From a virus (taxonomy: Duplodnaviria; Heunggongvirae; Uroviricota; Caudoviricetes), in IMG/VR virus record IMGVR_UViG_3300036956_000151: a stretch of 28,061 bases of DNA. One strand, written 5' to 3'. The translations under genes and the position numbers were made by a program. Under the pieces are notes generated by a model that was given only the letters and a program-made list of their open reading frames with translations, searched no databases and was not told the DNA's origin. Positions 1,902 through 27,660 of the stretch are shown here, piece after piece; the first letter of the stretch is position 1; every line of letters begins with the position of its first letter.

Positions 1902-1978
1902 GGGCCGTTAGCTCAGTTGGTTAGAGCAGGCGACTCATAATCGCTTGGTCGCTGGTTCAAGTCCAGCACGGCCCACCA
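1902..1978 (+). tRNA. tRNA with CAU anticodon; anticodon and T arms match what I recall of enterobacterial ileX (tRNA-Ile2, lysidine type) better than elongator tRNA-Met; 77 nt including encoded CCA
   Basis: Acceptor stem GGGCCGT/ACGGCCC, D-arm TAGCTCAGTTGGTTAGAGCA, anticodon loop CTCATAA, T-arm GGTTCAAGTCC, 3' CCA; sits directly after rpoD as ileX does in E. coli. Confidence 0.9.
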
Positions 1979-2028
1979 TACGTATCAAGCACTTAGGCCA
2001 GCCTCACGAGGGCTGGCCTTTTGCTTTC
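1933..2028 (+). repeat. att direct repeat copy 1 (tRNA 3' half from anticodon loop plus terminator); part of the intact tRNA
   Basis: Near-identical to 12407-12502 and 27555-27660. Confidence 0.85.
1996..2027 (+). terminator. Rho-independent terminator of the tRNA (GGCCAGCC-N7-GGCTGGCC followed by TTTTGCTTT); repeated with the att copies at 12470-12501 and 27620-27651
   Basis: 8-bp GC stem plus T-run seen directly. Confidence 0.65.
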
Positions 2029-2036
2029 TGGGCCAA

Positions 2037-2055
2037 TGTAAGCACCTTGTAAGCG
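2037..2055 (+). promoter_or_regulatory. Two TGTAAGC heptamers (2037-2043, 2049-2055) at left end of element A; candidate integrase arm-type sites
   Basis: Same heptamer occurs three times at 12257-12287 at the opposite end, just upstream of the element A integrase start. Confidence 0.4.
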
Positions 2056-2530
2056 CCAGCAGAGGATGCGGGCCTGATGTCTGATGCGTACGTAACTTGT
2101 GTGCGTACCAGACTGCGTACTCGTGCATTGCACGGCCTCACATTGCGGTGCTGGCTATCGCCTTCCAAGCCCACGTTTAAAACGGAGCCTTCGACGGCGT
2201 GCTGAATACTCCGGTTTGAAATCGGAATATTCCCAGCTCCGGACAGCCCTGCGGCGACAGCCTCAAACCTTGACATCTTTGAACATCGGGCCTGACTCGC
2301 AGTAGAGGATGTCGCCGTTCCCGATACCCTGCAAAACCTACAAATCGTCGGCTTTGTGCAAGGGGCGCGAGGCATCCAACGCCATAAGGCACATATCGAA
2401 AGCTGCCTAGCAAGGGGGTGGCGTTTCGCCCACCCCTTTGATGCTCCCCGCAGGGTCGGGAAAACTACGCTATTTCCCGCAGTTTCAAGTTCGACCGTGG
2501 GCACCCTCGCCGGCCCCACCTCGCCCATCA

Positions 2531-2564
2531 ACCAAATTGGTAGATGGAGCAACCAATTTGGTTG
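2531..2564 (+). promoter_or_regulatory. Two adjacent palindromes ACCAAATTGGT and CAACCAATTTGGTTG; operator-like
   Basis: Perfect inverted repeats about 90-120 bp upstream of the Rha-like ORF. Confidence 0.35.
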
Positions 2565-2596
2565 CCACCAGCTTTACCGACCAGCACGGCGAAGGG

Positions 2597-2618
2597 GTGT
2601 CCTCAGTTTTGAGGATAC
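2597..2618 (+). promoter_or_regulatory. Palindrome GTGTCCTCA-GTTTT-GAGGATAC; operator-like, homologous to the site at 15443-15466 in element B
   Basis: Inverted repeat seen directly; 38 bp upstream of the ATG at 2657. Confidence 0.4.
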
Positions 2619-2656
2619 GTCGCCCCCGTCGCCAGCAGATACCCCATCAGCAAACC

Positions 2657-2803
2657 ATGAGCAGCCGCGAGATTGCGGAGCTAACGGGCAAGTGTCACGG
2701 CAACGTGAAGCGGACCATCGACACCTTGTCTGCCAAGGGAGTTATCCCTTTCCCTCATGCTGAGGAAAAGGCTACTGCGGGCCGTCCGCCGCTTGGCCTC
2801 TGA
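2657..2803 (+). CDS. Short ORF (48 aa) resembling only the N-terminal DNA-binding region of Rha/antirepressor-family phage proteins; possibly a truncated remnant
   Basis: MSSREIAELTGKCHGNVKRTIDTLSAKGVI matches the Rha-type N-terminal motif (SxEIAEL-GK-H-NV-R-I); no obvious SD. Confidence 0.4.
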   Translation: MSSREIAELTGKCHGNVKRTIDTLSAKGVIPFPHAEEKATAGRPPLGL

Positions 2804-2994
2804 GGGTGGCGTTTTTAAAACGCCCCCCCATGGAGAGCCAATATGGAGGCCATTTGCGGGAATGGCTCAGTTCTGAGCTATGAAGACCAGAGCCGGAATC
2901 CCTGTTCCACTCCCCATCCCGCCCAAGCCATGAATGCCGGCTGTCGCTGCAACCGTCGTGTGTAACTCTGCCCTGTAACCGCCAGCCAGAAGCG

Positions 2995-3016
2995 AAAAAC
3001 CCGGCGCTTGGCCGGG
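2995..3016 (-). terminator. Rho-independent terminator for the minus-strand gene 3054-3371 (CCCGGC-N5-GCCGGG followed by T5 on the minus strand)
   Basis: Hairpin plus A5 on the plus strand, about 40 bp past the stop codon. Confidence 0.5.
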
Positions 3017-3053
3017 TCTGTCCGTAGTGGGTACTAAACTTCAGGCGACATCT

Positions 3054-3371
3054 CTACCCCTCGGGGGAGCCAAAGTTGCGCAAAACCACACGGGCTAGGC
3101 TGCTGGTGCTGCAAAAACGGTCCTCGATGGCTGACATGACCGAGATGTTCAAGTCCTCGATTCTTGCCGACAGCCCGCGAAGCAATAGGGACTCGTCAAA
3201 GTTCTCCGATGTAAACGTTTCGCGCAGCATTCGGCACAGCCTGTCGATTTCCCAGGTTGCTTCCAGTGCTATGTCTCGGCGAGCCATGGACATAACTATA
3301 TCGTCGCCCTCTTCGCGGAGGTCTTGGTTGGTTCCGGTTTGGGGAAGGCTATCTAGTGTCGTTGCTTGCAT
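3054..3371 (-). CDS. Hypothetical acidic protein, 105 aa (MQATTLDSLPQTGTNQDLREEGDD...)
   Basis: ATG preceded by AAGGAG at 7 nt; terminator downstream; the plus-strand ORF over the same DNA is Ser-rich antisense-like. Confidence 0.5.
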   Translation of the reverse strand: MQATTLDSLPQTGTNQDLREEGDDIVMSMARRDIALEATWEIDRLCRMLRETFTSENFDESLLLRGLSARIEDLNISVMSAIEDRFCSTSSLARVVLRNFGSPEG

Positions 3372-3580
3372 GGTGGCTGCTCCTTGTGTGCGGTGATGTT
3401 CTCCGCAACCCCTTCCTACGGGGGCGGCGGAACCGTGCGGGGCTAGGAATACCGGACACAAGGAACCGGCCAGCCTCGCGGCTGCCCCACACGGCCCGCC
3501 ATTGAACAGGCGTCGCCATGCTTACCGACGTAAAAAAACCGCTTGCGCGGCCCTGTCGGCCTTGTGATTTCCGGGTTCCT
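3372..3580 (-). promoter_or_regulatory. Conserved ~200-bp structured non-coding leader (module 1), homologous to 15029-15235 in element B; possible promoter/5'-UTR or small RNA
   Basis: Alignable by eye with element B (shared GTTCTCCGC, GAACCGTGC, CCATGCTTACCGACGTAAAAAAACCGC-type blocks); conserved stems with compensatory changes; ends in SD plus ATG. Confidence 0.4.
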
Positions 3581-3760
3581 ACGCCCGCCCCTCTGTTTCG
3601 GGGGAAACTGAATCATGGGGCAGGCCGCTCGTTTCAGTCAATATAAAAATGATAATGAAATAGATTGGCTTGCCATAAATTTCGCTTGTACCATCGGCAT
3701 ACGACCACGGGCGTCTCGCAAGATGCAGACTGGCGCTCGCTCAAGACACAAGAGGCCCAC

Positions 3761-4735
3761 ATGAAGCGATTTGTTGTCATCCTCGGAGTATTGATGCTTG
3801 GCGGCTGCGCTACCGCCTATAAGCCTGAAGGTCACGGCGGAGGTTATACCGACGCTAGGTATGGCCCAAACCTCTTTGCAGTCACCGTGCGGGCCAACGG
3901 CTATACATCTTCTGACCGTGCAACAGAGCTGGCAATGCTACGAAGCGCGGAGCTTACATTGCAGAATGGATTCACCCATTTCGTCATCGCCGAGAGGGCT
4001 CAAGAGGCAAAGACCAGCACATTCAGCATGCCGACAACCACTTACACGACCGGAAATATCAACACGCAAGGAAATGCCGCTTACTTGAACGCCCAGACAA
4101 CAACTACAGGCGGGCAAACCTTCAATATTTCGAAGCCTCGCGTTTATTACAAAATAGAGTGTTACCGCAGTCAGCCCGACAGAGCCCTCGGGCTCGCTTA
4201 CGACGCCCGTGCAGTCTGCGAATCGCTTGGCAGCAAGTACGGCGTTGATTGCCAATCTCTCATCGCCACCAATCTCAAGCCTACCCATTCCAATGCCGGC
4301 GAAGTGCGTGCGGAGCTGTCCGCCGACCTGCCAGCCGGCTGGCAACGGCAAACTCTTTCTGACGAACTAGCGCAAAGAGGGGGAAGGCTGTTTGCCACTA
4401 ACAAGACCATAGACGCTGGGGCCTTGGTTTCGATGAGCAAACGGTCTGAAATTGTCGACACAGTCGTTTACGCCAAATCATTGAGAGCAAACCAAGCGAG
4501 CCTCATCGATAAAAGCGAGTGGTCTGAACTATCTGAAATCACCATAAACGGTCGTCGAGCATGGAAATTCTGGGTCACAGGCCTCTCAAAACGCGGCATG
4601 CAGGTTCAGTACCTAGGGACCGTTATTGAAGGCGAGTCACAGATGATTTACGTGAATACCTGGACTTCAAAGAAGAACTTTGACGATAACCGCACTGCTC
4701 TGGAGTCTCTCGCTGGCAGCTTTTCAGGCCTTTAG
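3761..4735 (+). CDS. Predicted lipoprotein, 324 aa, unknown function; low-GC cargo gene
   Basis: MKRFVVILGVLMLGGCATAYK (signal peptide with LGGC lipobox); AGAGG SD; GC visibly lower (~50%) than surroundings; Thr/Asn-rich linker segment. Confidence 0.8.
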   Translation: MKRFVVILGVLMLGGCATAYKPEGHGGGYTDARYGPNLFAVTVRANGYTSSDRATELAMLRSAELTLQNGFTHFVIAERAQEAKTSTFSMPTTTYTTGNINTQGNAAYLNAQTTTTGGQTFNISKPRVYYKIECYRSQPDRALGLAYDARAVCESLGSKYGVDCQSLIATNLKPTHSNAGEVRAELSADLPAGWQRQTLSDELAQRGGRLFATNKTIDAGALVSMSKRSEIVDTVVYAKSLRANQASLIDKSEWSELSEITINGRRAWKFWVTGLSKRGMQVQYLGTVIEGESQMIYVNTWTSKKNFDDNRTALESLAGSFSGL

Positions 4736-4768
4736 GCAGCGCAAGCGACGCCCGACCCCAAAGCGGCT

Positions 4769-4796
4769 ACGCGTGAAAGTGGCGTCTTTCACGCGT
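4769..4796. repeat. Palindromic hairpin repeat ACGCGTGAAAG-N6-CTTTCACGCGT; second copy at 5429-5456
   Basis: 11-bp perfect stems; two direct copies ~660 bp apart bracketing the repeat-rich block. Confidence 0.6.
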
Positions 4797-4907
4797 AACG
4801 ACGGGGCCAAGGGGAGGCCTCGTAGTCGGCTGGGTTGGCGATGAGCGGGGGAGAAGCAGGCTTGGTTTCCAGGGTCGGTTTCCAGCAGAACAGACCTTTT
4901 TCGCCTC

Positions 4908-4977
4908 CTGAAACCTGAACATCTTTCAGCATTCGCCGTCATGCCGTGCGCTTTTCTGTGCGCGTTGCCGGCTGCAT
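4908..4977. repeat. ~65-bp direct repeat (TGAACATCTTTCAGCAT...GTGCGCTTT...TTGCCGG), second copy 5148-5217; iteron-like
   Basis: Two copies ~240 bp apart read directly. Confidence 0.55.
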
Positions 4978-5260
4978 TACATCGAGGACCGGGCCAGCCA
5001 TGCGGTCGATGGCCACCTTGTGTTGTTCTTCAGGATTCAGGATTCAGCCGGGCCGGCACAGTGCTAGCACCGGGCTTGCCCGGTACTGGGGCTGCTTCGC
5101 ACTGCGGCCTGACGTGAAGACGCCCTCCCGCCCGGTCGTTTTGCTTCGTGAAAAGTGAACATCTTTCAGCATCGCATCGGGATGCTGTGCGCTTTCGCGT
5201 GCGGATTGCCGGAATCGGGGCAGGGCCAGTGCCGTCCATCTTCTGGACGCCATCGGTAGC

Positions 5261-5308
5261 GCCGATTTCAGCGCCGATTGACCGGCCGATTGACCGGCCG
5301 ATTGGCTG
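5261..5308. repeat. 12-bp tandem repeat GCCGATTGACCG, about four units, outer units degenerate
   Basis: GCCGATTTCAGC GCCGATTGACCG GCCGATTGACCG GCCGATTGGCTG. Confidence 0.6.
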
Positions 5309-5428
5309 CGCACCGAGCTGCGTACCACTGCCCTGCGTACCCGACTGCCGACGAAGGCCACGCCGCCAGCAGCGGCCACCAGTTCCAGAAAAGCGGCCTA
5401 CTCGCCAGCGTAGAGCTAGTAGCGGCCA

Positions 5429-5456
5429 CGCGTAAAAGTCGCGCCTTTCACGCGTG
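5429..5456. repeat. Second copy of the palindromic hairpin repeat (ACGCGTAAAAG-N6-CTTTCACGCGT)
   Basis: See 4769-4796. Confidence 0.6.
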
Positions 5457-5471
5457 ACGACGCGTGCGAGG

Positions 5472-5499
5472 GGAAGGAAGGAAGGAAGGAAGGAAGGAA
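5472..5499. repeat. (GGAA)7 tetranucleotide microsatellite
   Basis: Seven perfect GGAA units. Confidence 0.9.
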
Positions 5500-5771
5500 C
5501 TCTCTACGAGCGCGTTTGATGCGCCTGGCTACCTGCGCTTCCCTCAGACACGCAGTGCGTTCTTCGGTCTCCAGACGGGCGAGTGCACAGGCCATCCGGG
5601 CCAGGGTCAGAACTTACTGTTTCAGGCTGGCGGATTCTCGTTCCAGGGCGGCGAGTCGTTCAGCCTCCCCAAAACTCCCCAAAACCCCCCATTTATGGGT
5701 GCCGTCCTCCCCAAAACTCCCCACACCACCTTTAAGAGGTGGGGGGAAATGGGGACCATGTGGGGAATGGG

Positions 5772-7745
5772 TTACTTGAGCCACAGCCAGCCCTCCCGAA
5801 GGACGATGCAGCCACGGTTCACAAGTCCGGTAATGGCAAGCTGCGCCCTGTAACGTTTCTGGTCCGGGTCACATGCAAGGCGGGCGCGGGTCTTGTCGAT
5901 AGCCTCTTCCAGTTCAACGCAGGGCCGGCCAGGAGGTCCGCCAGCTTCCCCGAAGTGCCGCGACTCTTTCAGCAGGTCGCGCAGTGCGTCGAGGATGATT
6001 CGCTGATTCCCGCCGGTCGGCAGCTTCACCCGCCCCACGGCATCGGCGGCGCGCTCTTCGGGAACGACGCAGCAGCTTGTGATTTCGTCGCCGTCCTCGT
6101 CGGCCCCGATTTCCACCACTTCCAGCCGAAACGGTTTTCCCAGGTCGTCATTGCCATCCTTGCTCTTCGCGGCCGTCCATTCCCGGCGGTCGTCGGTGCG
6201 GCTCACCTCGATGGCGGCATCAAGCGCAGCGTGAAGGCTGGAATGCCCCCGCAGGCCCTTGGACGCATCCTTGCCGGTGTGATGCACCAGCAGCACCAGC
6301 CCGCCAAGCTCCGCCTGTAGCGCCTTCGTCGCGGCGATGATTTCGCCCATTGCGGCGGAGTCGTTCTCGTCGGCACCCGGCGCGGCGCGGTTCAGCGTGT
6401 CGAGGGCCAACACGCCACCCGAGTAACCGGCAGCGCGGGCGGCGCTCACAAGGTCGGCGCGGTCGGCAGCTTTGCGGATGTCGAGCGGTTGCAGCAGGAA
6501 GCGGAATGCGCCGGCAAGTGGGCCGTGTTTCTCTTGGTGCGCCTGGACGCGTTGCGAGATGCCGGCCTCACCCTCAAGGGCAACATACAGCACTGGGGCG
6601 GCCTTCACGCGGCACCCGAACCACGGCCGGCCAGCGGCGACAGCGGCGAGCATGTCGAGCGCCAGGAAGGATTTGCCGGACCCGCTTGGGCCATACAACG
6701 CGGCAATCCCTTCCTCCGGGAGCACACCACGCACCCGCCAGCGGACAGGGGGCAGCGCGGCCAGTTCAGACGGTGCCAGCAGCCGGAAGCGTTGCGAGTG
6801 CTTCTTCGGATTGGCCAGCAGTGCGGCCAGGGCGTCGAGGCCGTCCCGCTGGTGCATGTCGTTGGCGTCAAAGTTGGCGGGCGAGCCTTCCGGCATTTCC
6901 ACCCATGCGGCGGCGGTGTCCTTGGCGATGCGGGCGCAATGCGACTCCTTGCCGGCATCGGCCACCAACACCCGGCGGGCCAGCGGGTAGCGGTCGGCCA
7001 GCGCCTTGGATGCGGCTTCCATCCGGCCGGCACCGAAGCAGACCGCGGCCGGCGCGTTCGCGGCCTGGTGGCAGCTCCACGCCTGCCCGACGCCCTCGCA
7101 CAGGTAGAGCGTGACGCCTGCGCCCTGGTGCGGGATGCGCCCCACCACGAACAGGCCGTCCATCGGCAGGCCGGGGGCGTTCAGTTTCTTGCCATCGGCC
7201 GGCGGGATGAATTGCGCGCTCTTCAGGGTGCCGTCAATCGCGTAGCACGGCACCACGAGATAGCCGGCCACCGCCTCGCGGGCGATGGTCAGCGGGCCGC
7301 CATAGACGCGCAGGCCGGCGGGTAGGCCATGCTTGCGGGCAATGTAGCCGTGTTCCGCCGTCGCTGGTGCGCAGGATGCCCACAGGGCGGCCACGTCGAG
7401 CGGCGGAGCCTTGGACGGGGCTTCGTGCATCCGGCGCTCGGTCGTGCGTTGTGGGCGGTTCTGGTAAGTCTGGCGCGGTGCGTCGTCGCTCCATCCAGCG
7501 GCGCGGGCCAGTGCGAAGAGCGTACCGGCCTGGATGCCGCCATCCTCGCGGATGCTCCGCCAGACGGCGCGTGCGTCGGCCTCGTTGCGATAGTTGCCGG
7601 CTCCGGCGCTCCAGTCATGGAAGTCCTCGAAGTCGAGGCCGGCAGCCTTTGCAGCCATGCCAGCCCGGACCCATTCGGCGCGTTCGGCACCGGGGTCGAG
7701 GGCGTGCAAGGCAAAGCGGGCGCGGTCAAACTCGCGGGCATCCAT
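5772..7745 (-). CDS. Primase-helicase-type replication protein, 657 aa (PriCT-like N-terminus, Toprim-like centre, RecA-type ATPase C-terminus); ORF-track N-terminal 71 aa rejected
   Basis: MDAREFDRARFALHALDP...GLDFEDFHDWSAG; CEGVGQAW and VLVADAGKE; Walker A YGPSGSGKSFLALD and VLLVHHTGKD; ATG overlaps upstream stop (ATGA). Confidence 0.85.
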   Translation of the reverse strand: MDAREFDRARFALHALDPGAERAEWVRAGMAAKAAGLDFEDFHDWSAGAGNYRNEADARAVWRSIREDGGIQAGTLFALARAAGWSDDAPRQTYQNRPQRTTERRMHEAPSKAPPLDVAALWASCAPATAEHGYIARKHGLPAGLRVYGGPLTIAREAVAGYLVVPCYAIDGTLKSAQFIPPADGKKLNAPGLPMDGLFVVGRIPHQGAGVTLYLCEGVGQAWSCHQAANAPAAVCFGAGRMEAASKALADRYPLARRVLVADAGKESHCARIAKDTAAAWVEMPEGSPANFDANDMHQRDGLDALAALLANPKKHSQRFRLLAPSELAALPPVRWRVRGVLPEEGIAALYGPSGSGKSFLALDMLAAVAAGRPWFGCRVKAAPVLYVALEGEAGISQRVQAHQEKHGPLAGAFRFLLQPLDIRKAADRADLVSAARAAGYSGGVLALDTLNRAAPGADENDSAAMGEIIAATKALQAELGGLVLLVHHTGKDASKGLRGHSSLHAALDAAIEVSRTDDRREWTAAKSKDGNDDLGKPFRLEVVEIGADEDGDEITSCCVVPEERAADAVGRVKLPTGGNQRIILDALRDLLKESRHFGEAGGPPGRPCVELEEAIDKTRARLACDPDQKRYRAQLAITGLVNRGCIVLREGWLWLK

Positions 7746-8194
7746 CACATCACCCCCAGCACGCGCACGAAGGCCGCGACAACGGCGGCGGTCACGGATG
7801 CAGCGGCGAAGACAACGAGCGCGTCGAGGCTGATGGAACCGCGTTGCTGTCGTGCGTTCAGGGCGGCAGCGGTTGCCGGGTGCTGGCGGTCGAGCGCGTA
7901 CTCGGTGATTGTGCTGCGGCAATGGGGGCGGCGGATGTCGCGCTTGCAAAACGCCCACCCGCCATACTCCAGCGACTTAACTGACGCGGCCAGCCGCCAC
8001 CCGTCGCGGTAGTCGGCCTGGTTCTGCGGGCCGGTCAGCAGCGCCTGAAGGGCTTCGTAAGCCCGGGTGTTGTCGTTCGGCCAGCTTGCAGCTTCAACAG
8101 GCGGCAGCGTCTCGGGAAAGAGGTCTTGGGCGTTATAATGGCGAGGCTTGTCCAGGGCGCTCGACTTCTTTTTGGGGGTCGGGCGCTTTTTCAT
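7745..8194 (-). CDS. Hypothetical protein, 149 aa, basic N-terminus and hydrophobic C-terminal helix; coupled to primase gene
   Basis: ATGA overlaps at both ends. Confidence 0.6.
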   Translation of the reverse strand: MKKRPTPKKKSSALDKPRHYNAQDLFPETLPPVEAASWPNDNTRAYEALQALLTGPQNQADYRDGWRLAASVKSLEYGGWAFCKRDIRRPHCRSTITEYALDRQHPATAAALNARQQRGSISLDALVVFAAASVTAAVVAAFVRVLGVM

Positions 8195-8750: not shown

Positions 8751-8843
8751 TCGCTGGTTCTCCTGCTCGGAAAACCACCGTTGAGAGTCGCCGGATGCAA
8801 CTCAATCAACGCTGGCGAACGCAATGTGTTGCGCCGAAGTCTA

Positions 8844-8859
8844 TTAACAGCCGGCTGTT
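8844..8859. promoter_or_regulatory. Perfect 16-bp palindrome TAACAGCCGGCTGTTA in the promoter region of the element A replication operon
   Basis: Lies between the stop at 8863 and the HTH gene start at 8750. Confidence 0.35.
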
Positions 8860-21212: not shown

Positions 21213-21249
21213 GTATTTATCCTTCCGTGGTTCGGAGGTGACGGCATAA

Positions 21250-21483: not shown

Positions 21484-21565
21484 TTTGCGTCTTTCTCGAG
21501 TTCGATATTGTGATGTTGCGGGGGCTGAAAAGCCGCGCTGCGGCAGGGTTTCCGGGAAATGGTCG

Positions 21566-22492
21566 TCATTCCCAAAACCCCGCGCGGAGCATGTCGACGG
21601 GCTGCTGAGTGGCGTGCTCGAGGTACTGCATTGAGCCCCTGTCGAAGAACAGCCCGACCTTCCCTTCAAACTCCCCGTTCCGCTGTTTGTCGATAATCAG
21701 GAGTGCGTCCGGCTCTGTCGGCTGGTGGCTTCCGCCGGCCTGCATGGCTTGCTCTTTGGCTTTGTTTCTCCACACGACAACCACGTTATCCACTTGGTCG
21801 GTGATGGAGCCGGAGCCCTTGACGTCCATCTTGCCGGGCGGCAGGGTTTCGTCCTTGAACTTGCGCGAGTGGGCCACGAGGTGAATGTGCATGCCGGTGT
21901 CACGGCCGATGGTGGTGATGGCATCGAGAAAGAGCTTTTGTGCGGTGAAGTCGTCTTCGGCCAGTCCGCATTTCATCAAGCTGTCGACAACGAAGTGCTT
22001 CACCTTTAATTTGTCGGCGGCGTATCTCATGACGGCTAAAATCTTGTCGGCATGCACCTGACCCTGCTGGTCGTAAATCCACAGCCACTCCGACCACAGC
22101 TCGTGCGCACCCAGCACCAACTCCCGGTCGGGCTGACGGCAACCGGCGGTTTGCCGCATCATGCGAGCCAGCGTGACCACGGGCTTCATTTCAAAACTTG
22201 CGATGCAGACCGGCTCGCGCTGGCAGACGAAGCCCACCATCGCCTGTCCCAGCGCCAGGGACTTTCCATGTCCATTCATCCCACTCCAAAGCGTCACTTC
22301 TCCTTCCCGGAAGCGGATCAAATCACGGGTTTTCTTCCAAGGAAGCTTTGCGCCGCGAAGCTGTTCACCGTTCTCGAGATAGTCGGCCACCTCCTCGGCG
22401 TATGCACTTGCCGGGATGATCTTGTGGCCAGCATCGGTGGCCTGCATGTACAGGCTGAAGTCGATGTCATCGCGAATTATGTTGGCGCTCAT
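21566..22492 (-). CDS. RecA-fold replicative helicase (DnaB C-terminal/RepA-like), 308 aa
   Basis: Walker A WSGMNGHGKSLALGQ, Walker B KHFVVDSLMK, downstream HLVAHSRK; ATGA coupling to upstream gene. Confidence 0.8.
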   Translation of the reverse strand: MSANIIRDDIDFSLYMQATDAGHKIIPASAYAEEVADYLENGEQLRGAKLPWKKTRDLIRFREGEVTLWSGMNGHGKSLALGQAMVGFVCQREPVCIASFEMKPVVTLARMMRQTAGCRQPDRELVLGAHELWSEWLWIYDQQGQVHADKILAVMRYAADKLKVKHFVVDSLMKCGLAEDDFTAQKLFLDAITTIGRDTGMHIHLVAHSRKFKDETLPPGKMDVKGSGSITDQVDNVVVVWRNKAKEQAMQAGGSHQPTEPDALLIIDKQRNGEFEGKVGLFFDRGSMQYLEHATQQPVDMLRAGFWE

Positions 22493-22854
22493 ACCTTGCG
22501 CTCCTCTTCCTCGCCGATGCCGATCCACTCTTCCCGCTGCCCCCGCTCCCATCGCATTCCGAGGTCTCCGGGCAGCCAGTCGACCACGAAGCATTCGACG
22601 GCGATGGCGTAGTCCTTCAGGCGGCCCAGGAAGCGCAGAAGGGGTCGGTCGTAGGTGTCGGCAATCACGATGACGCGGAGGCCGACCAACGGGCGGAGAT
22701 CAACCCTCTCAGTGGCGGCGGCGCGCGGGATGGAGATTTCGACGGTGGTGTCGGCCCATCTGTCCCAGCGTGTCGGGGCGTAATCGCCAAGCCACAACCA
22801 GGCGGCGCCGGCCGGGCGCTTGCCGGCGAGGCGCAGGGCCTCCAAAGGCTTCAT
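22489..22854 (-). CDS. Hypothetical protein, ~121 aa (start uncertain; ORF-track start at 22941 would overlap the upstream gene)
   Basis: ATGA overlap with the helicase start. Confidence 0.45.
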   Translation of the reverse strand: MKPLEALRLAGKRPAGAAWLWLGDYAPTRWDRWADTTVEISIPRAAATERVDLRPLVGLRVIVIADTYDRPLLRFLGRLKDYAIAVECFVVDWLPGDLGMRWERGQREEWIGIGEEEERKV

Positions 22855-22868
22855 GTCAGGGATCGTCC

Positions 22869-23615
22869 TCACAAGGCCCCCAAGAACAAGCCGCTGCTGG
22901 CGCTGGGCTCGGTCGTAGTGCAGGGAGTACCGTCCTCCCAACGCCGCTGGTTCAAGTAGGTCAGAGGAGCCGGTGTGAAGTCCTGAAATTGCTTGGTTCC
23001 GGATATCTCTCCAAGGTGGGACAGAATGGCGTCAGCAAAGTGATCCAATCCCTTCGTCTTCCATTTCTTCGCGCACTCGGTTTTTGCCTGCTTCCTTGGG
23101 CCGACAGGCCACGCCTGCCAAAATTCAGCGAAACGCGAAGCGGATCGCGGCTGCGAAGCAGGATCTTTAGCGTCATCCCCCGACGCGCGTTGTATACCTT
23201 CCTTTCCTTCCCTTCCTACCTGTGCGTCACTGGCGCGCACATGTCCGTCACTGTCGCGTGCTCCACGCGTGACCGACGCGTCATCGACGCGTGCCACCTC
23301 GTGAGGGGCGGGAAGCGTGGATTGCGACTCGCGGGGGTTGATGTGCTGATGATCCAAAAACGTGGGGATGTGGGCCAGGCCGTCGCCGTAGAGCACCACG
23401 TGGCCAGTGTCCACGAGGTGCTGGCAGGCATCCACAACGTCAAAGCTATCGCCAGGGAAGTATCGGAGCTTCAGGGTCCGGGGCCGCCACACCAAGCGGC
23501 CCTCTCGATCCGCCTCGCACCACAGGGCGATGTAGAGGAGGCGGACGTGTAGGGGCATGTCCACGACCTCTTCGCTCGTAAAAAAGTCAGGCTTGATTGT
23601 CCGGATGCGGGCCAT
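22869..23615 (-). CDS. Phage-type replication initiation/organiser-like protein, 248 aa; assignment tentative
   Basis: N-terminus MARIRTIKPDFFTSEEVVDMPLHVRLLYIALWCEADREGRL resembles prophage replication-protein N-termini as I recall them; sits directly upstream of the helicase. Confidence 0.55.
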   Translation of the reverse strand: MARIRTIKPDFFTSEEVVDMPLHVRLLYIALWCEADREGRLVWRPRTLKLRYFPGDSFDVVDACQHLVDTGHVVLYGDGLAHIPTFLDHQHINPRESQSTLPAPHEVARVDDASVTRGARDSDGHVRASDAQVGREGKEGIQRASGDDAKDPASQPRSASRFAEFWQAWPVGPRKQAKTECAKKWKTKGLDHFADAILSHLGEISGTKQFQDFTPAPLTYLNQRRWEDGTPCTTTEPSASSGLFLGAL

Positions 23616-23914
23616 CACACGACCCCAGTCACGTATGCGGCGACGGCTGCGCGGGTCGCCTCGTCGGCCATGTCTAGGCGGTACTCGGCGATGATACGGC
23701 CGCAATATGGTACCTCCCGGACGCGGATCGCCCAGTGATCGGCAATAAGCTGTCTGACATATTCGGCGAGTCGCCACGACTCGGTGAACGTGGCCTGCGT
23801 GACCGGGCCCGCGATTAGGGCAGACAGGGTCGCGTGCTTGATCGTGTTCGGTTTCGGGGGGATGGGCGCCGGCTTCGGAGCCGCGCCGACTAGGTCGTGC
23901 TGGTCGGTGGTCAC
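23615..23914 (-). CDS. Hypothetical protein, ~100 aa, putative GTG start
   Basis: Open frame between the HTH gene stop and the replication gene start; ATG alternatives would overlap the HTH gene. Confidence 0.35.
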   Translation of the reverse strand: MTTDQHDLVGAAPKPAPIPPKPNTIKHATLSALIAGPVTQATFTESWRLAEYVRQLIADHWAIRVREVPYCGRIIAEYRLDMADEATRAAVAAYVTGVV

Positions 23915-23915
23915 G

Positions 23916-24098
23916 TTAGGCCACCTGGCCGGTGATGCGCGCCACCGCATCAGCAGGCCACAGGAGGCGCCCGTTCGGCAGGCGGGCCGGCTTGAGGCCG
24001 CAAAAATGCCCATTGCGCCAAACGGCGGTACGGATGCTGGCGGGCTGGCGGTCAATCTGCTTGGCCAGCGTCGCAGTCGTAATTAGGTGCTGTTGCAT
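23916..24098 (-). CDS. Small HTH DNA-binding protein, 60 aa, AlpA/excisionase-like; first gene of the element B replication operon
   Basis: ATLAKQIDRQPASIRTAVWRNGHFCGLKPARLPNGRLLWPADAV; GGAG SD; same pattern as 8520-8750. Confidence 0.65.
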   Translation of the reverse strand: MQQHLITTATLAKQIDRQPASIRTAVWRNGHFCGLKPARLPNGRLLWPADAVARITGQVA

Positions 24099-24137
24099 CG
24101 CGGTCACTCCGTGTGGTTGGATGTGACGCACTCTGCT

Positions 24138-24245
24138 TACCGGTACTTTTTGGGATCCTTACCGCCGATAAGGATCCCCAGCAGTGGCAAGGGTTTGGGG
24201 GGTGACCGCCGGTTTGCTTACCGGCGACTGCCGCCGGTAAGCGTT
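24138..24245. promoter_or_regulatory. Operator cluster: four CTTACCG motifs arranged as inverted repeats (GGGATCCTTA-N7-TAAGGATCCC at 24152-24178; CTTACCGGCG-N5-CGCCGGTAAG at 24217-24241)
   Basis: Upstream of the HTH gene that heads the replication operon. Confidence 0.4.
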
Positions 24246-25001
24246 TCAAAGGAGCGCGGTTAGCTCGCTCCAACGGTCATCCCATTCGGGGAAATTCCGG
24301 CTAATGACGATGCGAGCGGCGCTCTTGGTGAGAAAGCCCTTGCTCACCATACAAAAAGCGAACTGAGCGGGGTCCCATAGTGCCGGCCGGCCTCCCCCTC
24401 GTCCTGGCGTGTATTCCCTGGCGGTCTTCATCCACCCCGGGCAATCAGAAATTGTTCGGGACCAATTCTCTGGCCTGGTGCTCTTGGGGTGTGGAAAAGC
24501 TTCCGACAGCTGTTTGGATGTTACGAGGCTGTGAGGGGGTGGCGATGCAGCGGGGATGCTTGGATTTAGCTCCTCAGGAGCGCTCCCCTGTCGGTCATTC
24601 GTACCAAGATCACTTCTCCGAACGAAAAGCCCCGTTCGCGTCACGACTGGCATTGGAATTACCTTCCCGTCGCCGCCCTTCTCCCAGCACGGCGCCCAAT
24701 ACGCCCCGTCCTTGTCTGGACGGGTGAAGGCGGGAACGTCGGTTCCGACTTCCCCATTCAGTGCACTCGCCAAGTCACGGCGGCTGACGGGAATGTAGAT
24801 GAAGTGCTTGCGCTGCGGCTCCTCGCTGAGCTTGACGATGGTTCCGTCAGGATTCGCACGGAGACGCACAGCCTGCCTATCCTCCCCGAGGAGAAAGTAG
24901 ACGCGCAACTGGCCTTCCAGGCCTGCTGCGATCAGGGAATCTTCTGAACAACAAAAGGTCTTGGCGGCTTCCGATAGTCGGATGTATTCGGGTTCAAACA
25001 T
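24246..25001 (-). CDS. Hypothetical protein, 251 aa; syntenic with the element A 197-aa protein and shares its GGRPA motif; internal ATG chosen because the upstream DNA is conserved module 2
   Basis: GGAG SD; module 2 immediately upstream. Confidence 0.6.
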   Translation of the reverse strand: MFEPEYIRLSEAAKTFCCSEDSLIAAGLEGQLRVYFLLGEDRQAVRLRANPDGTIVKLSEEPQRKHFIYIPVSRRDLASALNGEVGTDVPAFTRPDKDGAYWAPCWEKGGDGKVIPMPVVTRTGLFVRRSDLGTNDRQGSAPEELNPSIPAASPPPHSLVTSKQLSEAFPHPKSTRPENWSRTISDCPGWMKTAREYTPGRGGGRPALWDPAQFAFCMVSKGFLTKSAARIVISRNFPEWDDRWSELTALL

Positions 25002-25027
25002 TCTCGCGCTCCATCTGCGCACCCATC

Positions 25028-25104
25028 GAAAAAGGCACCGCGCCAGCGGGGCGATGGAATCCCCGTTTTCGGTTGGCCGACCTAGGCGCGGTGGTGGTGC
25101 TCGG
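25028..25104. terminator. Conserved nested-hairpin element (module 2), element B copy
   Basis: Outer stem CACCGCGCC/GGCGCGGTG, inner CGGGG-N9-CCCCG plus T4. Confidence 0.45.
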
Positions 25105-25359
25105 TCAGCTACGGTTCCGACGTGCAGCCTCGATGCCGGCCCGCAGTTCTTCGTCCGTGGCCGGGCGGTCGTCCTCGTCCTTACCGTCCCATACAAAGTG
25201 CTTTTCCGGAGAGATATTGCGGACCGCCGTAGCCAGTTCCTTACGCTGCTGTTCAGCCAGGGCAGAGAGCTCGTTGGCCTTCCGAAATGCCGGGTCGCCC
25301 TTGCTGGCTTCCTCGGCATAAGCGCGAGGGTCGAAGGAGCCGGGTTTGTAGTCGCTCAT
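25105..25359 (-). CDS. Hypothetical protein, 84 aa, charged; third gene coupled to the HigBA pair
   Basis: Strong SD GGAGAGGAG; begins about 20 nt after the antitoxin stop. Confidence 0.6.
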   Translation of the reverse strand: MSDYKPGSFDPRAYAEEASKGDPAFRKANELSALAEQQRKELATAVRNISPEKHFVWDGKDEDDRPATDEELRAGIEAARRNRS

Positions 25360-25381
25360 GGTTCGCTCCTCTCCTGCTCGG

Positions 25382-25690
25382 TCAGGCAGCTTCCGCGTGC
25401 ATTGGCCGAATCTCTCGTGCCACCTTCTCGCCTATTGCCGCCTCGGCCTGCTTCAGGTCAAAGGCTGTTTGCAGATTCATCCAGAATTGCGGCGTGGTGT
25501 CGAAGTAGCGGGCGAGGCGCAGGGCAGTGTCAGGCGTCACCGCCCGGCGCTCGCGCACGATGTCGTTAATGCGCGGGGCAGGAACGTGCAAATCCATTGC
25601 CAGGGCGTTGGCGCTGAGTCCAAGCGGCAGCAGGTATTCTTCCCGCAGAATCTCGCCCGGATGAATGGGGCGCATATTGTTCGTAGCCAT
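25382..25690 (-). CDS. higA: HigA-family antitoxin (XRE-type HTH), 102 aa
   Basis: IHPGEILREEYLLPLGLSANALAMDLHVPAPRINDIVRERRAVTPDTALRLARYF; GAGGGA SD. Confidence 0.8.
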   Translation of the reverse strand: MATNNMRPIHPGEILREEYLLPLGLSANALAMDLHVPAPRINDIVRERRAVTPDTALRLARYFDTTPQFWMNLQTAFDLKQAEAAIGEKVAREIRPMHAEAA

Positions 25691-25701
25691 GTTCAAATCC
25701 C

Positions 25702-25983
25702 TCAGTGGTAATCCACGATTTCGACGCCCTCCGGCCCCGTAGCCGTCCAAACGAAGCACACGCGCCACTGGTCATTGATGCGGATGCTGTGCTGTCCGGC
25801 TCGGTTCCCACTGAGCGCTTCGAGACGATTGCCCGGGGGCGAGCGCAAGTCCTTCAGCTCTTCGGCAGCATCAAGCATTTGCAGTTTTCGCTCTGCGACA
25901 GCTTCAATGTTCCGGAATCGCTTCGGGTGCAGCCCTTCGTAAAGGGCTTCGGTGTCTTCGCACCGAAATGAACGGATCGTCAT
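25702..25983 (-). CDS. higB: HigB killer-protein toxin (RelE/ParE superfamily), 93 aa
   Basis: MTIRSFRCEDTEALYEG...PPGNRLEALSGNRAGQHSIRINDQWRVCFVWTATGPEGVEIVDYH. Confidence 0.85.
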   Translation of the reverse strand: MTIRSFRCEDTEALYEGLHPKRFRNIEAVAERKLQMLDAAEELKDLRSPPGNRLEALSGNRAGQHSIRINDQWRVCFVWTATGPEGVEIVDYH

Positions 25984-26007
25984 GGTCTCAGAATAGAACG
26001 CGTTACG

Positions 26008-26026
26008 TTTAACGTCAATCGTTAAA
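26008..26026. promoter_or_regulatory. Inverted repeat TTTAACG-N5-CGTTAAA upstream of the toxin gene; likely TA operator
   Basis: Between toxin start (25983) and integrase stop (26041); same placement as in element A. Confidence 0.35.
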
Positions 26027-26040
26027 GTTGTAAATGGAGG

Positions 26041-27369
26041 TTACTTGACGGCCCTGAGGACTGTCGCGGCCCCCTCTGTCGGCTGCTCGATGCCGGCCTG
26101 TTCCAGAATCCACGCCTCAATCTTGATGTGCCACATACGTAGCAGGTCGAGGGGCCGGCGGCGGTAGTGCTTTTCAGCCAGCGCAGACGGCTTGTGCCCT
26201 TGAATCTGCGCCACCACGCCCACCGGGCATTCCACCCATTCGGACAGGGTGCCGAAGGAGCGGCGCAAGTCATGCAGTGAGAACGGCGGCAGGCCGGCGG
26301 CTTCCATCGCGTTCTTGTGGGGCTTGAGCGGCTCCTGGAGGCGGCCAGATGCCGCGGAGGGGCTGGAGAACACCCACTCATTGCGGCGCGGCAGGGCTGC
26401 CAGCAAGGCCGCAACATAGGGCGTCAGCGGGATGATGCGCTGCCCTTCCACTTTGTCCCGGATGGTCAGGGACTTCCATTGAAAATCGATGCAATCCCAC
26501 GTCAGGCCGGCGAGCTCTTCGCGGCGGGCTCCGGTAAGCAGCAGGGTTTGCAGGTAGGCCACGTGCACCGGATTGCCCAGCTTCCTGACGTGCTCGAACC
26601 ACAGCGGCAACTGCTCCCGCTGCAGGCTGTCGCCCTTGGCTCTGGCCGCCTGCACCTGGTCCCGCACTTCGCTGGTACGGCAGGCGTCGGCCCGGACAAG
26701 GCCGGCATACTCGGGCCGCTCGGCACACCAGCCAAGGAAGGCCCGCACCAAGCGGAAGTTCTTCGCTGCTTCGGTGGCCCCCCGGACGTTGTTCGCCTGC
26801 ATCCAGGCCGTTATGCACGCCGGCGTCAGGTCGATCAGGCAGACCGCCAGCAGCGGATGAACCATGCCCTGCAATGAGAACTCGCCCTGCCCCTTCTTGC
26901 GGCCTCGCGTGATGCGCTCGCCACCGGGCTTGATGGCCTTCTCGTGGTCCCGCTTGGACGATTCGCCCCACTTGTGGGAGCGGGCGGCAACGTAGGCGGC
27001 CCACGCCTCGCCAACGGTCACGGACTGGCGGCGCTGCTCTTCCTGCCCTGCCACCACTGCGGCCTTCTTGGCCTCCACTGCGGCCAGCTTGTCGGCTTTC
27101 TCCTGCCGGGGATCGGTGCCCTGGTCGACAACGGTTTGCAACCGGCGAGCTTCGGCGCGGGCATCGTCCAGGTTCCACGCCCGCACGTCGCCGATGGTTA
27201 CGCGGATTGTTTGCCGGTTTAGCTTGGCCTCGAAGATGAACGACTTCGCGCCCGTGGTCGCACGCACAGCGAGGCGCGGCGCGTCGGTGTCCCAGAGGAA
27301 GGATTGCTTGGCGTCGGCGGGGCAGGAGAAGCGGCGGATTCGGTCGGGCGTGAGGCGTTCGCGTTGCAT
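26041..27369 (-). CDS. int: Tyrosine recombinase, P4-type integrase (element B), 442 aa
   Basis: Collinear with the element A integrase with long identical stretches (HDLRRSFGT, VGVVAQIQGHKPSALAEKHYRRRPLDLL); GGAG SD; adjacent to att copy 3. Confidence 0.9.
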   Translation of the reverse strand: MQRERLTPDRIRRFSCPADAKQSFLWDTDAPRLAVRATTGAKSFIFEAKLNRQTIRVTIGDVRAWNLDDARAEARRLQTVVDQGTDPRQEKADKLAAVEAKKAAVVAGQEEQRRQSVTVGEAWAAYVAARSHKWGESSKRDHEKAIKPGGERITRGRKKGQGEFSLQGMVHPLLAVCLIDLTPACITAWMQANNVRGATEAAKNFRLVRAFLGWCAERPEYAGLVRADACRTSEVRDQVQAARAKGDSLQREQLPLWFEHVRKLGNPVHVAYLQTLLLTGARREELAGLTWDCIDFQWKSLTIRDKVEGQRIIPLTPYVAALLAALPRRNEWVFSSPSAASGRLQEPLKPHKNAMEAAGLPPFSLHDLRRSFGTLSEWVECPVGVVAQIQGHKPSALAEKHYRRRPLDLLRMWHIKIEAWILEQAGIEQPTEGAATVLRAVK

Positions 27370-27388
27370 GGTGACGGGCTCCGAATTT

Positions 27389-27425
27389 GGCTACACAGAC
27401 AGCCCATGTAGCCACGGTGTAGCCA
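27389..27425. promoter_or_regulatory. Three GTAGCCA-type repeats (one inverted) upstream of the element B integrase; candidate arm-type sites
   Basis: GGCTACAC (inverted), TGTAGCCA, TGTAGCCA; matches the left-end pair at 12511-12529. Confidence 0.4.
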
Positions 27426-27554
27426 AATTCTACCTATGCGCGTCTATTTTTGTCTATTCAACAAAACTGCAAAACAACTGGGAACCCAGTATTTACGAGG
27501 GTTTCGCGGTGTTTTGTCGTTTCCTGTCTATGCCTATAAAGCCCGTATTTTTGC

Positions 27555-27660
27555 CGACTCATAATCGCTTGGTCGCTGGTTCAAGTCCAGCACGGCCCAC
27601 CAATAGCATCAAGCACTTAGGCCAGCCTCACGAGGGCTGGCCTTTTGCTTTCCGGCGCCG
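27555..27660 (+). repeat. att direct repeat copy 3 (right end of element B); tRNA 3' half plus terminator, a few substitutions after CCA
   Basis: Same 46-nt tRNA 3' segment and terminator; shares the tail CGGCGCCG with copy 2. Confidence 0.85.

Follow-up and report, generated by a model that had tools for sequence, protein, structure and literature searches.

We analyze a 28,061-nt stretch of DNA (IMG/VR virus record IMGVR_UViG_3300036956_000151, assigned to Caudoviricetes; the whole stretch is hereafter "the window") in which two integrase-bearing islands, element 1 and element 2, lie one behind the other next to a single tRNA gene. An earlier note, made from the sequence alone, had described the region as a tandem array of two related P4-type integrase elements with three copies of an attachment (att) repeat of about 96 bp. 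We hold with considerable confidence that the array arose by two separate integrations into the anticodon loop of a tRNA-Ile2 gene, and that the elements, which may well be phage satellites, would excise orthogonally and carry C4-type RNA switches.

The locus and its integration site

The window runs from rpoD, through the tRNA gene and the two islands, into a protein-coding gene on the right. The features that define the array are as follows.

15..1892, + strand: 3' part of rpoD (sigma-70) with six Sigma70 Pfam domains, the left chromosomal flank
1902..1978, + strand: intact tRNA-Ile2 gene (ARAGORN, Rfam), its 3' part from the anticodon loop onward apparently supplied by element 1
1933..2054, + strand: att copy 1, attL of element 1 (B-O-P1'), with the 3' 46 nt of the tRNA, a consensus site for integration host factor (IHF), a terminator hairpin at 1995-2019 with a T run, and a doubled TGTAAGC
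1937..12410, no strand assigned: element 1, 10,474 bp, measured between the anticodon-loop crossovers of copies 1 and 2, with its own motif on both flanks
10926..12242, - strand: integrase 1 (Int1), 438 aa, Pfam PF13356 and PF00589
12257..12287, + strand: candidate P arm of element 1, three copies of TGTAAGC 15-45 nt upstream of the int1 start codon
12407..12528, + strand: att copy 2, the hybrid junction P1-O-P2', with a tRNA 3' fragment, an IHF consensus site at 12457-12469, the terminator hairpin and a doubled TGTAGCC
12411..27560, no strand assigned: element 2, 15,150 bp, delimited by the repeat spacing, with TGTAGCC on both flanks
26041..27369, - strand: integrase 2 (Int2), 442 aa, Pfam PF13356 and PF00589
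27389..27424, + strand: candidate P arm of element 2, two copies of TGTAGCC and one inverted copy
27557..27660, + strand: att copy 3, attR of element 2 (P2-O-B'), a displaced tRNA 3' fragment and terminator with no doubled motif after them
27829..28061, + strand: start of a gene for a signal-peptide-bearing protein, the right chromosomal flank, running past the window end

A single tRNA gene was found in the window (1902-1978, + strand; ARAGORN; Rfam tRNA, 72.1 bits). It has a CAT anticodon and starts 10 nt 3' of the rpoD stop codon. ARAGORN labels it tRNA-Met from the anticodon; we dropped this label because the body of the gene matches E. coli genes annotated as tRNA-Ile at 93.5-94.7% identity. 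Given this likeness, and given that the rpoD-tRNA(CAT) synteny is kept across betaproteobacterial genomes, the gene is a tRNA-Ile2, of the ileX-type, lysidine-dependent class. The ileX gene of E. coli is likewise placed downstream of rpoD.

The complete rpoD encodes 652 aa and starts upstream of the window, with dnaG upstream of it (gene call on the overlapping JGI contig L182). On the other side, the right-flank gene extends to 227 aa in contig L089, and its product has no Pfam match. A scan of species-representative genomes with RpoD returned 80 betaproteobacterial loci, the best (82%) in a Sterolibacterium metagenome-assembled genome (MAG), followed by Rhodocyclaceae and Propionivibrio. None of these 80 loci carries the att sequence or the right-flank gene of the window, and a related integrase appears as one weak match at most; in more distant genomes, the rpoD-tRNA pair has no integrase within 10 kb. 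An exact look-up of the N-terminally truncated RpoD open reading frame (ORF) of the window returned no record, and exact matches to the integrase proteins are confined to metagenome contigs in JGI, ENA, Logan and NCBI (11 public contigs for Int1 and 5 for Int2). The host is an uncultured betaproteobacterium. In related species, four MAG contigs (L001, L003, L008, L010) stop 50-400 nt past rpoD, as would be expected if island repeats at this tRNA break assemblies in related organisms.

Three att copies with partner-specific motifs

ARAGORN, Rfam and a repeat finder bear out the earlier description of one intact tRNA followed by two islands, each ending in an integrase beside a partial tRNA copy and its terminator. 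The repeat finder places three co-oriented copies of a direct-repeat family at 1933-2051, 12407-12525 and 27557-27675, spaced 10,474 and 15,150 bp apart. Base-by-base comparison upholds the reported repeat of about 96 bp: exact extension yields 96 identical nt in copies 1 and 2 (1933-2028 and 12407-12502), and copy 3 is identical over 46-48 nt of the tRNA part and 45-53 nt of the terminator part, the sole difference being 5 nt after CCA. Each repeat consists of the tRNA 3' part, from the anticodon loop to CCA, and then a strong hairpin with a T run (-25.3 kcal/mol, z = -3.6). In all three copies, the left limit of identity is the anticodon loop. A 25-nt probe from the T arm, with up to three mismatches allowed, matches only the three att copies in the window (0 matches in 100 shuffles); it shows no further att fragments inside either island, such as would point to more than two units.

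The short motifs flanking the repeats are partitioned between the two elements. TGTAAGC occurs at 12257, 12270 and 12281, upstream of the int1 start codon, and again at 2037 and 2048, 11 nt apart, right of copy 1; the whole window has 14 matches where 5.6 are expected, and they cluster at the att flanks. TGTAGCC occurs at 27407 and 27418 upstream of int2, together with an inverted copy at 27389-27395, and again at 12511 and 12522 right of copy 2. No comparable doubled 7-nt motif is present right of copy 3. The P'-side doublets lie 100-117 nt from the anticodon-loop centre in both elements, and the int-side repeats lie about 124-172 nt away. On the basis of position, repetition and covariation, we read the doubled 7-nt motifs as integrase arm sites.

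The IHF consensus WATCAANNNNTTR has only two perfect matches in the window (0.22 expected), both reading TATCAAGCACTTA, at 1983-1995 and 12457-12469. They lie in copies 1 and 2, which derive from the elements, and in each case the core is on one side and the P' doublet on the other. Copy 3 has a near-IHF site with one mismatch at 27607-27619, and its right side has the terminator and 9 further nt in common with the P' side of element 2. In related loci, an IHF-like ATCAAGCACTTAG follows the CCA end of several different tRNA fragments and therefore looks element-borne, not tRNA-specific.

The layout of the array is B-O-P1', element 1, P1-O-P2', element 2, P2-O-B'. In this reading, the attP of each element has four parts, namely the motif repeats beside the int start codon as the presumed P arm, the tRNA 3' half from anticodon loop to CCA, an IHF consensus site within a terminator hairpin, and the doubled 7-nt motif as the presumed P' arm.

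The two integrases and their relatives

The integrases, which the earlier note had called close homologues, are 78% identical when aligned (77% between the int genes). Both are full length, with Arm-DNA-bind_3 (PF13356) and Phage_integrase (PF00589) domains above the Pfam cut-offs. By region, identity is 84% over the core-binding and catalytic parts and 65% over the N-terminal arm-binding domain. The name "P4-type" fits their domain architecture and the attP layout but not their sequence, as the best BLASTP segment between Int1 and P4 Int is 28% identical over 101 aa (E = 0.03). Among 50,697 phage records, no phage integrase exceeds 25% identity to the window integrases at a coverage of at least 80%, and IMG/VR yielded only 6 distant relatives.

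A metagenome scan with both integrases gave 80 loci (L093-L172), about 50 of which have a tRNA 3' fragment, starting at the anticodon loop, 185-210 nt upstream of int, which marks tRNA integration of the anticodon-loop type. For the comparison of motif and N-terminal domain, we restricted the set to loci that are non-redundant in the upstream sequence. Loci with TGTAAGC (n = 22) average 82% identity to the N-domain of Int1 versus 59% to that of Int2; for loci with TGTAGCC (n = 26), the means are 64% and 83%, respectively. TGTAACC or TGTAGGC takes the place of these motifs in remoter relatives. As for the target, every genuine locus with a C-terminal identity of at least 73% has an Ile2 fragment (the sole other such locus is L085, discussed below), and loci at 50-67% carry tRNA fragments of other kinds, whose anticodon loops are of Thr, Met, Lys, Asn and Phe type. 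Over about 60 related loci, the motif tracks the N-terminal domain of the integrase, the tRNA target tracks its C-terminal region, and the two modules recombine independently.

Individual loci illustrate the exchange. In L108 and L111, an N-domain that is 99% Int1-like, with TGTAAGC motifs, goes together with a C-region at 63% and a tRNA-Thr fragment. L097 (2395-4480) resembles element 2 through the motif region and ~230 nt at the start of int, and element 1 from there through HigBA; L099 (5489-7640) is the reciprocal element-1/element-2 hybrid, and in both loci HigBA matches the C-terminal donor. Recombination between the two int genes of a tandem array would be expected to give such a reciprocal pair as L097 and L099. 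They lend indirect support to the earlier suggestion that the repeats and int genes could permit homologous recombination.

In L085 (ENA ERZ22666056 k127_49306216, positions 1-2482), an int1 identical to that of the window is fused to an att region of the L111 type, from a relative that targets tRNA-Thr. Positions up to 900 match L111 at 100%, the remainder matches the window at 100%, and the switch falls around the start of int, in a short stretch that both have in common. We rejected this contig as evidence of dual targeting, the sliding identity marking it as an assembly chimera or a natural recombinant. In L102 and L103 (Int2-like, 97%), the displaced fragment reads ACTAATAATCG in place of ACTCATAATCG, so that the anticodon is changed; this is consistent with the displaced tRNA copy being non-functional.

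The relatives also bear on the origin of the pair. The common orientation and gene order of the islands, and their similar int genes and att sites, could reflect an in-situ tandem duplication of one island with later divergence. However, nucleotide likeness outside int and att is confined to one RNA motif of ~100 nt, the replication modules are of different types, and the 7-nt motifs differ as they do between independent lineages of the family. The closest relatives, moreover, separate the two integrases, L093-L096 being closer to Int1 and L102/L103 closer to Int2. We regard a duplication as exceedingly improbable.

A real tandem of probably mobile elements

Copy 2 stands between int1, on its left, and the left end of element 2, an arrangement found in the tandem state only. 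This junction is spanned at 100% by a 14-kb contig from JGI 3300036971 (L081/L182) and again by a 17-kb contig (L179) from JGI sample 3300037671, with unique sequence on both sides in each sample. Among the fetched loci, only three tandem-type junctions were seen for this strain, and the single-occupancy junctions B-O-P2' and P1-O-B' occur in none.

These junctions decide against an assembly artefact, in which two strains with one element each would have been chained through the 96-nt repeat. Such an error would be in keeping with the window matching metagenome contigs only, with the many contigs that break inside the att repeat (L082-L088, L092), and with an overlap of 127 nt at 12804-12930 between two contigs of one sample. 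Because P1-O-P2' is spanned in both samples, however, and because the single-occupancy junctions are unseen, we consider an artefact very improbable. The two overlapping contigs cover the array in sample 3300036971, and their 127-nt overlap lies inside the left end of element 2, not in the att repeat; it suggests sequence in common with another locus or variant in that community.

Together, the co-oriented att copies, partitioned motifs, full-length integrases and spanned junction support the successive integration of two relatives that the earlier note had proposed. The comparison with related genomes that it suggested for finding an empty site turned up none of the same strain; what it did yield is L139, from another species, where the corresponding rpoD-tRNA site holds a single element of ~7 kb.

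Close relatives of Int1 (93-98%) and of Int2 (97%) have other right-hand neighbours (L093, L095, L099, L101-L103, L105), and the elements therefore appear to move independently. We infer that they are mobile at present in this host. In L108 and L116, a neighbouring element lies upstream of int, and tandem stacking seems common in this element family. Other doubled motifs with a period of ~11 nt occur right of the att copy next to int, namely GACGACTGGGG twice in L095, L099 and L106 and CATTGCTCC twice in L101; they presumably belong to other, neighbouring elements with further arm specificities.

The array might also be a fixed composite island, formed by successive integration and now immobile. 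This would account for the failure to find an empty site, an attP or a single-occupancy variant, and for the presence of the same array in several samples of one project series; the toxin-antitoxin (TA) modules beside both integrases could stabilise it. However, the integrases are full length, the motif sets, IHF sites and cores are all intact, copies 1 and 2 agree at every one of 96 nt, and integrases 93-98% alike occur with other neighbours. Fixation is, in our judgment, unlikely.

Proposed course of integration and excision

Our preferred reading, two separate integrations by elements that are still mobile, follows the standard model of tRNA-targeting integrases. Integration would swap the tRNA 3' half and terminator for the copy carried by the element and would move the old 3' half to the far end, by int; because the element copy replaces the lost 3' half, the tRNA should stay functional. 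The second integration would have gone into attL or attR of the first element, and either order fits the sequence. Each integrase would bind its own motifs through the N-terminal domain and, with IHF, recombine at the anticodon loop. Since both arm domains and motifs differ, each integrase should excise only its own element. Int1, acting on copies 1 and 2, could remove element 1 and leave element 2 with a normal attL; Int2, acting on copies 2 and 3, could remove element 2 and leave element 1 with a normal attR. Loss of both together, by recombination of copy 1 with copy 3, would call for a mixed motif set and is expected to be disfavoured. In addition, RecA-dependent deletion or hybrid formation would be possible through the 96-nt repeats and the int genes, which are 77% identical. 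The following sequences are predicted.

attP1: ...CCCGTAACCATTCA + 96-nt repeat + TGGGCCAATGTAAGC
attP2: ...GTATTTTTGCCG + ACTCATAA...CCATACGT...TTGCTTTCCGGCGCCGTGTAGCC
site after loss of element 1: GCAGGCG + repeat + CGGCGCCGTGTAGCC
site after loss of element 2: CCATTCA + ACTCATAA...CCAATAGC...GGCGCCGGCATCC
empty site: GCAGGCG + ...CCAATAGC...GGCATCC (tRNA plus copy-3 downstream sequence)

Several observations weigh against this reading. An exact search of the JGI metagenomes for the predicted empty attB gave zero matches, the fetched loci include neither a single-occupancy variant of the same strain nor a circular attP junction, and all same-strain contigs are in the same tandem state. An element-like terminator and a near-IHF site lie on the right side of copy 3, so that this side may owe its form to previous elements or to gene conversion and may be other than untouched chromosome. 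AlpA or another protein could be what binds the 7-nt motifs, and the AlpA-like assignment is itself weak (HTH_17, E = 8e-4, below the Pfam cut-off).

RNA modules: int-alpA and C4

Two kinds of RNA module occur in both elements. The "hairpin module" of the earlier note is real in each island, and its identity is that of a known Rfam family, the int-alpA RNA; the other module combines a C4 antisense RNA with an isrK-like leader. The Rfam cut-offs are 35.8 bits for RF02996, 45 bits for RF01695 and 50 bits for RF01394.

9473..9541, - strand: int-alpA RNA of element 1, RF02996 at 71.9 bits
25023..25092, - strand: int-alpA RNA of element 2, RF02996 at 63.0 bits, 83% identical to the element-1 copy
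3420-3506, - strand: C4 antisense RNA of element 1, RF01695 at 67.5 bits, fold z = -3.0
3532-3604, - strand: isrK-like (a1-b1) leader of element 1, RF01394 at 43.8 bits, just below the cut-off
15078-15160, - strand: C4 antisense RNA of element 2, RF01695 at 48.1 bits, fold z = -3.75
15182-15260, - strand: isrK-like (a1-b1) leader of element 2, RF01394 at 44.6 bits, below the cut-off, with a weak c4-a1b1 match

In both elements, 17-22 nt separate the end of the int-alpA RNA from the start codon of the gene that follows, X in element 1 and the non-homologous X' in element 2, a position that would suit a leader function. Seven instances follow int in six related loci, in L139 at a distance of 27 nt. 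The main text of Weinberg et al. 2017 does not discuss int-alpA.

A promoter scan finds a promoter-like site at 3612-3641 by the element-1 leader. Relatives carry C4 modules as well (L099 at 15622-15807, L108 at 7490-7667, L156 at 16564-16649). The known P1/P7 mechanism served as the test for the C4 matches. Two C4 stretches, the second-hairpin loop and the unpaired segment next to it, each have a complementary site 54-76 nt upstream in five family members; each is complementary to a second site downstream as well, one at +2 and the other at +31 to +35, where the site covers the Shine-Dalgarno sequence of the next ORF. This complementarity spans 6-9 nt, keeps conserved distances and covaries across the five members. 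The segments of element 1 are UCCUUGUGU and UUCCUA, and UCCUUGUGU is perfectly complementary to the Shine-Dalgarno region ACACAAGGA (3381-3389). Those of element 2 are UCCUUAUU and CCGCCAA, and UCCUUAUU has its complement in AAUAAGGA, at the Shine-Dalgarno site of the ORF that begins at 15028. The two C4 RNAs thus appear, from their pairing segments, to differ in specificity at both positions. As the pairing sequences differ, the elements should not cross-regulate, and each C4 RNA would keep the distal operon silent in the integrated state. Phages P1 and P7 are heteroimmune, and C4 specificity differs between them.

Gene content of the two elements

The remaining genes of element 1 are the following.

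10616-10894 / 10320-10604, - strand: HigB-like / HigA-like pair (Pfam)
9943-10236 / 9554-9934, - strand: HigB_toxin / HTH_3 protein pair (Pfam)
8863..9456, - strand: X gene, 197 aa, starting 17 nt after the int-alpA RNA
8520-8750, - strand: AlpA/excisionase-like protein by position, weak HTH_17 match
8191-8520, - strand: HTH_39 (winged-helix) protein (Pfam)
7745-8194, - strand: small conserved protein, 41% identical to 23615-23914 of element 2
5772..7745, - strand: primase-helicase fusion, PriCT_2 + AAA_25 (Pfam; PHROG primase/helicase families; 657-aa gene call in L081/L182)
3761..4735, + strand: CC0125/CC1285-family lipoprotein, the main cargo (NCBIfam NF047637, 82 bits against a cut-off of 40)
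3054..3371, - strand: 105-aa ORF downstream of the C4 RNA, with no Pfam, PHROG or PADLOC match and a terminator after it
2537..2803 (48-aa ORF at 2657-2803), + strand: Rha-like N-terminal fragment (Phage_pRha, E = 3.8e-5, profile positions 1-25 of 91)

The window contains three HigBA pairs, counted as PF05015 or PF09907 adjoining an HTH_3 protein. X has no match in Pfam, PHROG, PADLOC or NCBIfam. The lipoprotein gene lies in the stretch of lowest GC content in the window (GC 0.54-0.57) and is accompanied by small ORFs. The Rha-like fragment belongs to a left-end stretch of about 900 nt in element 1. The Rha-type N-terminal ~25 residues recur in a 43-aa ORF at 12699-12830 on the - strand, at the left end of element 2 and in the opposite orientation; at the nucleotide level, this is a 39-nt match of 90% identity, inverted at 12756-12794.

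Two further repeats occur. A 34-nt repeat at 4899-4932 and 5139-5172, with a weaker copy at 2253-2286, lies at the 5' ends of small ORFs on the - strand. The start of one of these ORFs is at ~4932-4942, and the others are two overlapping candidates that begin at 5239 and 5379; they look like small paralogous genes of element 1. Separately, 2585-2618 and 15432-15465 have a 34-nt segment in common (82%) that contains the palindrome GTGTCCTCAGTTTTGAGGA(T/C)AC, and the copy at 15432-15465 lies upstream of the isrK-like promoter region in element 2.

Element 2 carries these genes in addition to its integrase.

25702-25983 / 25382-25690, - strand: HigB-like / HigA-like pair (Pfam, gene calls)
25105-25359, - strand: 84-aa ORF (gene calls)
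24246-25001, - strand: X' gene, 251 aa, of no family and not similar to X
23916-24098, - strand: AlpA-like protein, 45% identical to 8520-8750 over 44 aa
23615-23914, - strand: small protein, homologue of 7745-8194
22869-23615, - strand: replication initiator (Pfam, PHROG; gene calls in L089/L090/L180)
22489-22854, - strand: small ORF of the replication module (gene calls)
21566-22492, - strand: DnaB-like helicase (Pfam, PHROG)
20619-21176 or 20619-21419, - strand: HTH regulator, 47% identical to an HTH gene of phage Rb1
15554-16459, 17919-18644 and 19535-20332, - strand: homologues of genes in morphogenesis regions of large phages (PHROG), 49-56% identical to dispersed Rb1 genes
18677-19351, + strand: KilA-N gene (Pfam)
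15554..21419, - strand: the phage-related block (~6 kb) as a whole, including other small ORFs (PHROG)
14660-15028 (122 aa), 14136-14657 (173 aa), 13591-14058 (HTH) and 13299-13589 (weak AlpA-like), - strand: operon downstream of the element-2 C4 RNA (Pfam, PHROG; gene calls in L179/L180)

The gene order that the earlier note described as shared holds from int to the AlpA-like gene, mostly by position, but the X genes are unrelated and the replication modules differ, with a primase-helicase fusion in element 1 and an initiator plus DnaB-like helicase in element 2. We rejected X and X' as homologues on the same ground, their sequences being unrelated. Detectable homology between the islands is limited to the integrases (78%), HigB/HigA (32-37%), the small protein (41%) and the ~100-nt RNA element (83%).

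Five proteins of element 2 (15554-16459, 17919-18644, 19535-20332, 20619-21419 and 13591-14058) have homologues of 32-56% identity in Xanthomonas phage Rb1 (PQ569993, 91 kb). Three of these lie in Rb1 morphogenesis regions, and the other two both match a single HTH gene, which immediately precedes the terminase genes. Homologues of the phage block are also found in IMG/VR viral contigs of 41-81 kb. The Rb1 homologues may point to the type of helper; we found no C4 RNA in Rb1. Pfam and PHROG scans of the called ORFs detect no capsid, terminase, lysis or relaxase genes in either element, PADLOC finds no known defence gene among 10 cargo proteins, and the NCBIfam scan names the lipoprotein only.

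Are the elements phage satellites?

We see about an even chance that the elements are phage satellites of the integrase, AlpA-like and replicase type, which a helper phage would mobilise. That they are other small integrative elements (conjugally mobilised integrative and mobilizable elements (IMEs) or replicative islands), or that element 2 is a satellite fused to a decayed prophage remnant, is a serious possibility that we would place somewhat below even. It draws on the lack of any detected terminase small subunit, capsid-size or packaging gene, on the lack of a phage-like gene in element 1, and on the distance of the integrases from phage integrases described above (at most 25%, with 6 distant IMG/VR relatives). 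However, Pfam and PHROG scans find no relaxase, coupling protein or oriT-type gene, and the combination of int, an AlpA-like gene and a primase or replicase within 10-15 kb is the Type C pattern of phage-inducible chromosomal islands (PICIs) in SatelliteFinder (PMC10085698). The C4-type immunity RNAs and KilA-N are phage functions, and genes that are dispersed in Rb1 cluster in element 2 behind a homologue of an Rb1 regulator. We treat satellite status as a hypothesis because no helper phage, packaging signal or capsid-redirection gene was identified and element 1 is without phage-like genes.

More speculatively, the elements could form an undescribed family of betaproteobacterial satellites, comprising int, int-alpA RNA, an alpA-like gene, a replicase and a C4 switch. 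Its members would stack at tRNA genes, be kept orthogonal by arm domain and motif and by C4 loop and target, be retargeted by recombination inside int, and have Rb1-like helpers. Taken as a whole, this proposal is a tentative one that we find more doubtful than satellite status itself.

Comparison with known systems

The closest parallels are tandem PICI or island pairs at one att site with three related att sites, which have been documented (PMC10111431; SatelliteFinder, PMC10085698). tRNA-Ile2 is a reported PICI target, and the attP of HE-PICIs contains a doubled ~8-nt TGTATTGC with an 11-nt period, co-oriented and at fixed distances on both sides of the crossover (PMC10111431). The array resembles these tandems in its two integrase islands of 10-17 kb in the same orientation, three similar att sites and a doubled motif. 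It differs in its betaproteobacterial host, its partner-specific motifs and C4 RNAs, and its undamaged displaced tRNA fragments, whereas PICIs at several tRNA genes, including some Ile2 genes, have deletions in the displaced fragments (PMC10111431). Of the PICI core set, the integrase and replicase are present and AlpA is weak and positional; PHROG and Pfam recognise no PICI genes for packaging or for hijacking capsid morphogenesis (terS, ppi/rpp, capsid) in either element. The capture of helper late genes by satellites has already been described (PMC10111431, PMC10085698), and the SatelliteFinder authors hold the Type C PICI pattern to be ambiguous (PMC10085698).

Satellite P4 (NC_001609) is similar in its integrase with arm-binding and catalytic domains, its tRNA 3' target and its size range of 10-15 kb. 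Its attP layout is likewise comparable, with repeats that abut the int start, a core at ~134 nt, within the ~130-150 nt common to both systems, and a doubled repeat ~75 nt beyond. The primase-helicase of element 1 is 30% identical to P4 alpha over 104 aa (E = 3e-6), and the replicase of element 2 is of another type. Scans of the called ORFs of both elements with Pfam and PHROG gave no match to Psu, Sid, Delta or Epsilon, and the AlpA-like protein has no similarity to P4 ORF88 (Vis). The crossover also differs, lying at the anticodon loop here and near the tRNA 3' end in P4. In P4, too, immunity acts through a small RNA, which is processed from the leader of the very operon under its control.

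For the C4 modules, the nearest systems are immI of P1/P7 (C4, RF01695) and isrK of Gifsy-1 (RF01394; PMC4825925), which likewise have two unpaired segments with targets upstream and in the ribosome-binding region. An isrK-like leader directly upstream of C4 also occurs in Xylella prophage regions. Unlike immI of P1/P7, the module sits in integrase islands of 10-15 kb and not in a plasmid prophage, and the ORFs it precedes show no likeness to icd or ant, nor to the families scanned. Both int-alpA RNAs lie between int and an alpA-like gene and score far above threshold, as the family would have it; they differ in that one or two TA pairs stand between int and the RNA and that the unrelated X or X' precedes alpA.

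In the classical accretion of cis-mobilizable elements (CIMEs), one partner is without recombination genes. Site-specific accretion among ICEs (integrative and conjugative elements), IMEs and CIMEs proceeds by entry of a second element into attL or attR, giving three att sites and separate or joint excision (PMC5704250), and phage-ICE tandems have also been described (PMC13651849). The array differs from accretion tandems in that it has no conjugation or mobilisation genes and in that each of the two partners brings an integrase of its own, with a specificity different from the other's.

This array is a well-resolved example of a phenomenon, tandem islands at tRNA genes, that is already well known. 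It offers a clean natural case of several mobile elements sharing one integration site, and the metagenome relatives provide a ready domain-swap set that should be useful to integrase engineering. It also gives a genomic context to two Rfam motifs, C4 in islands, where functional characterisation is scarce, and int-alpA, which has none, and it possibly represents an unrecognised satellite family in wastewater-type Betaproteobacteria. Beyond the known tandems, some added interest lies in the two levels of orthogonality, the natural domain-swap series, and the occurrence of int-alpA and C4 motifs in one element family.

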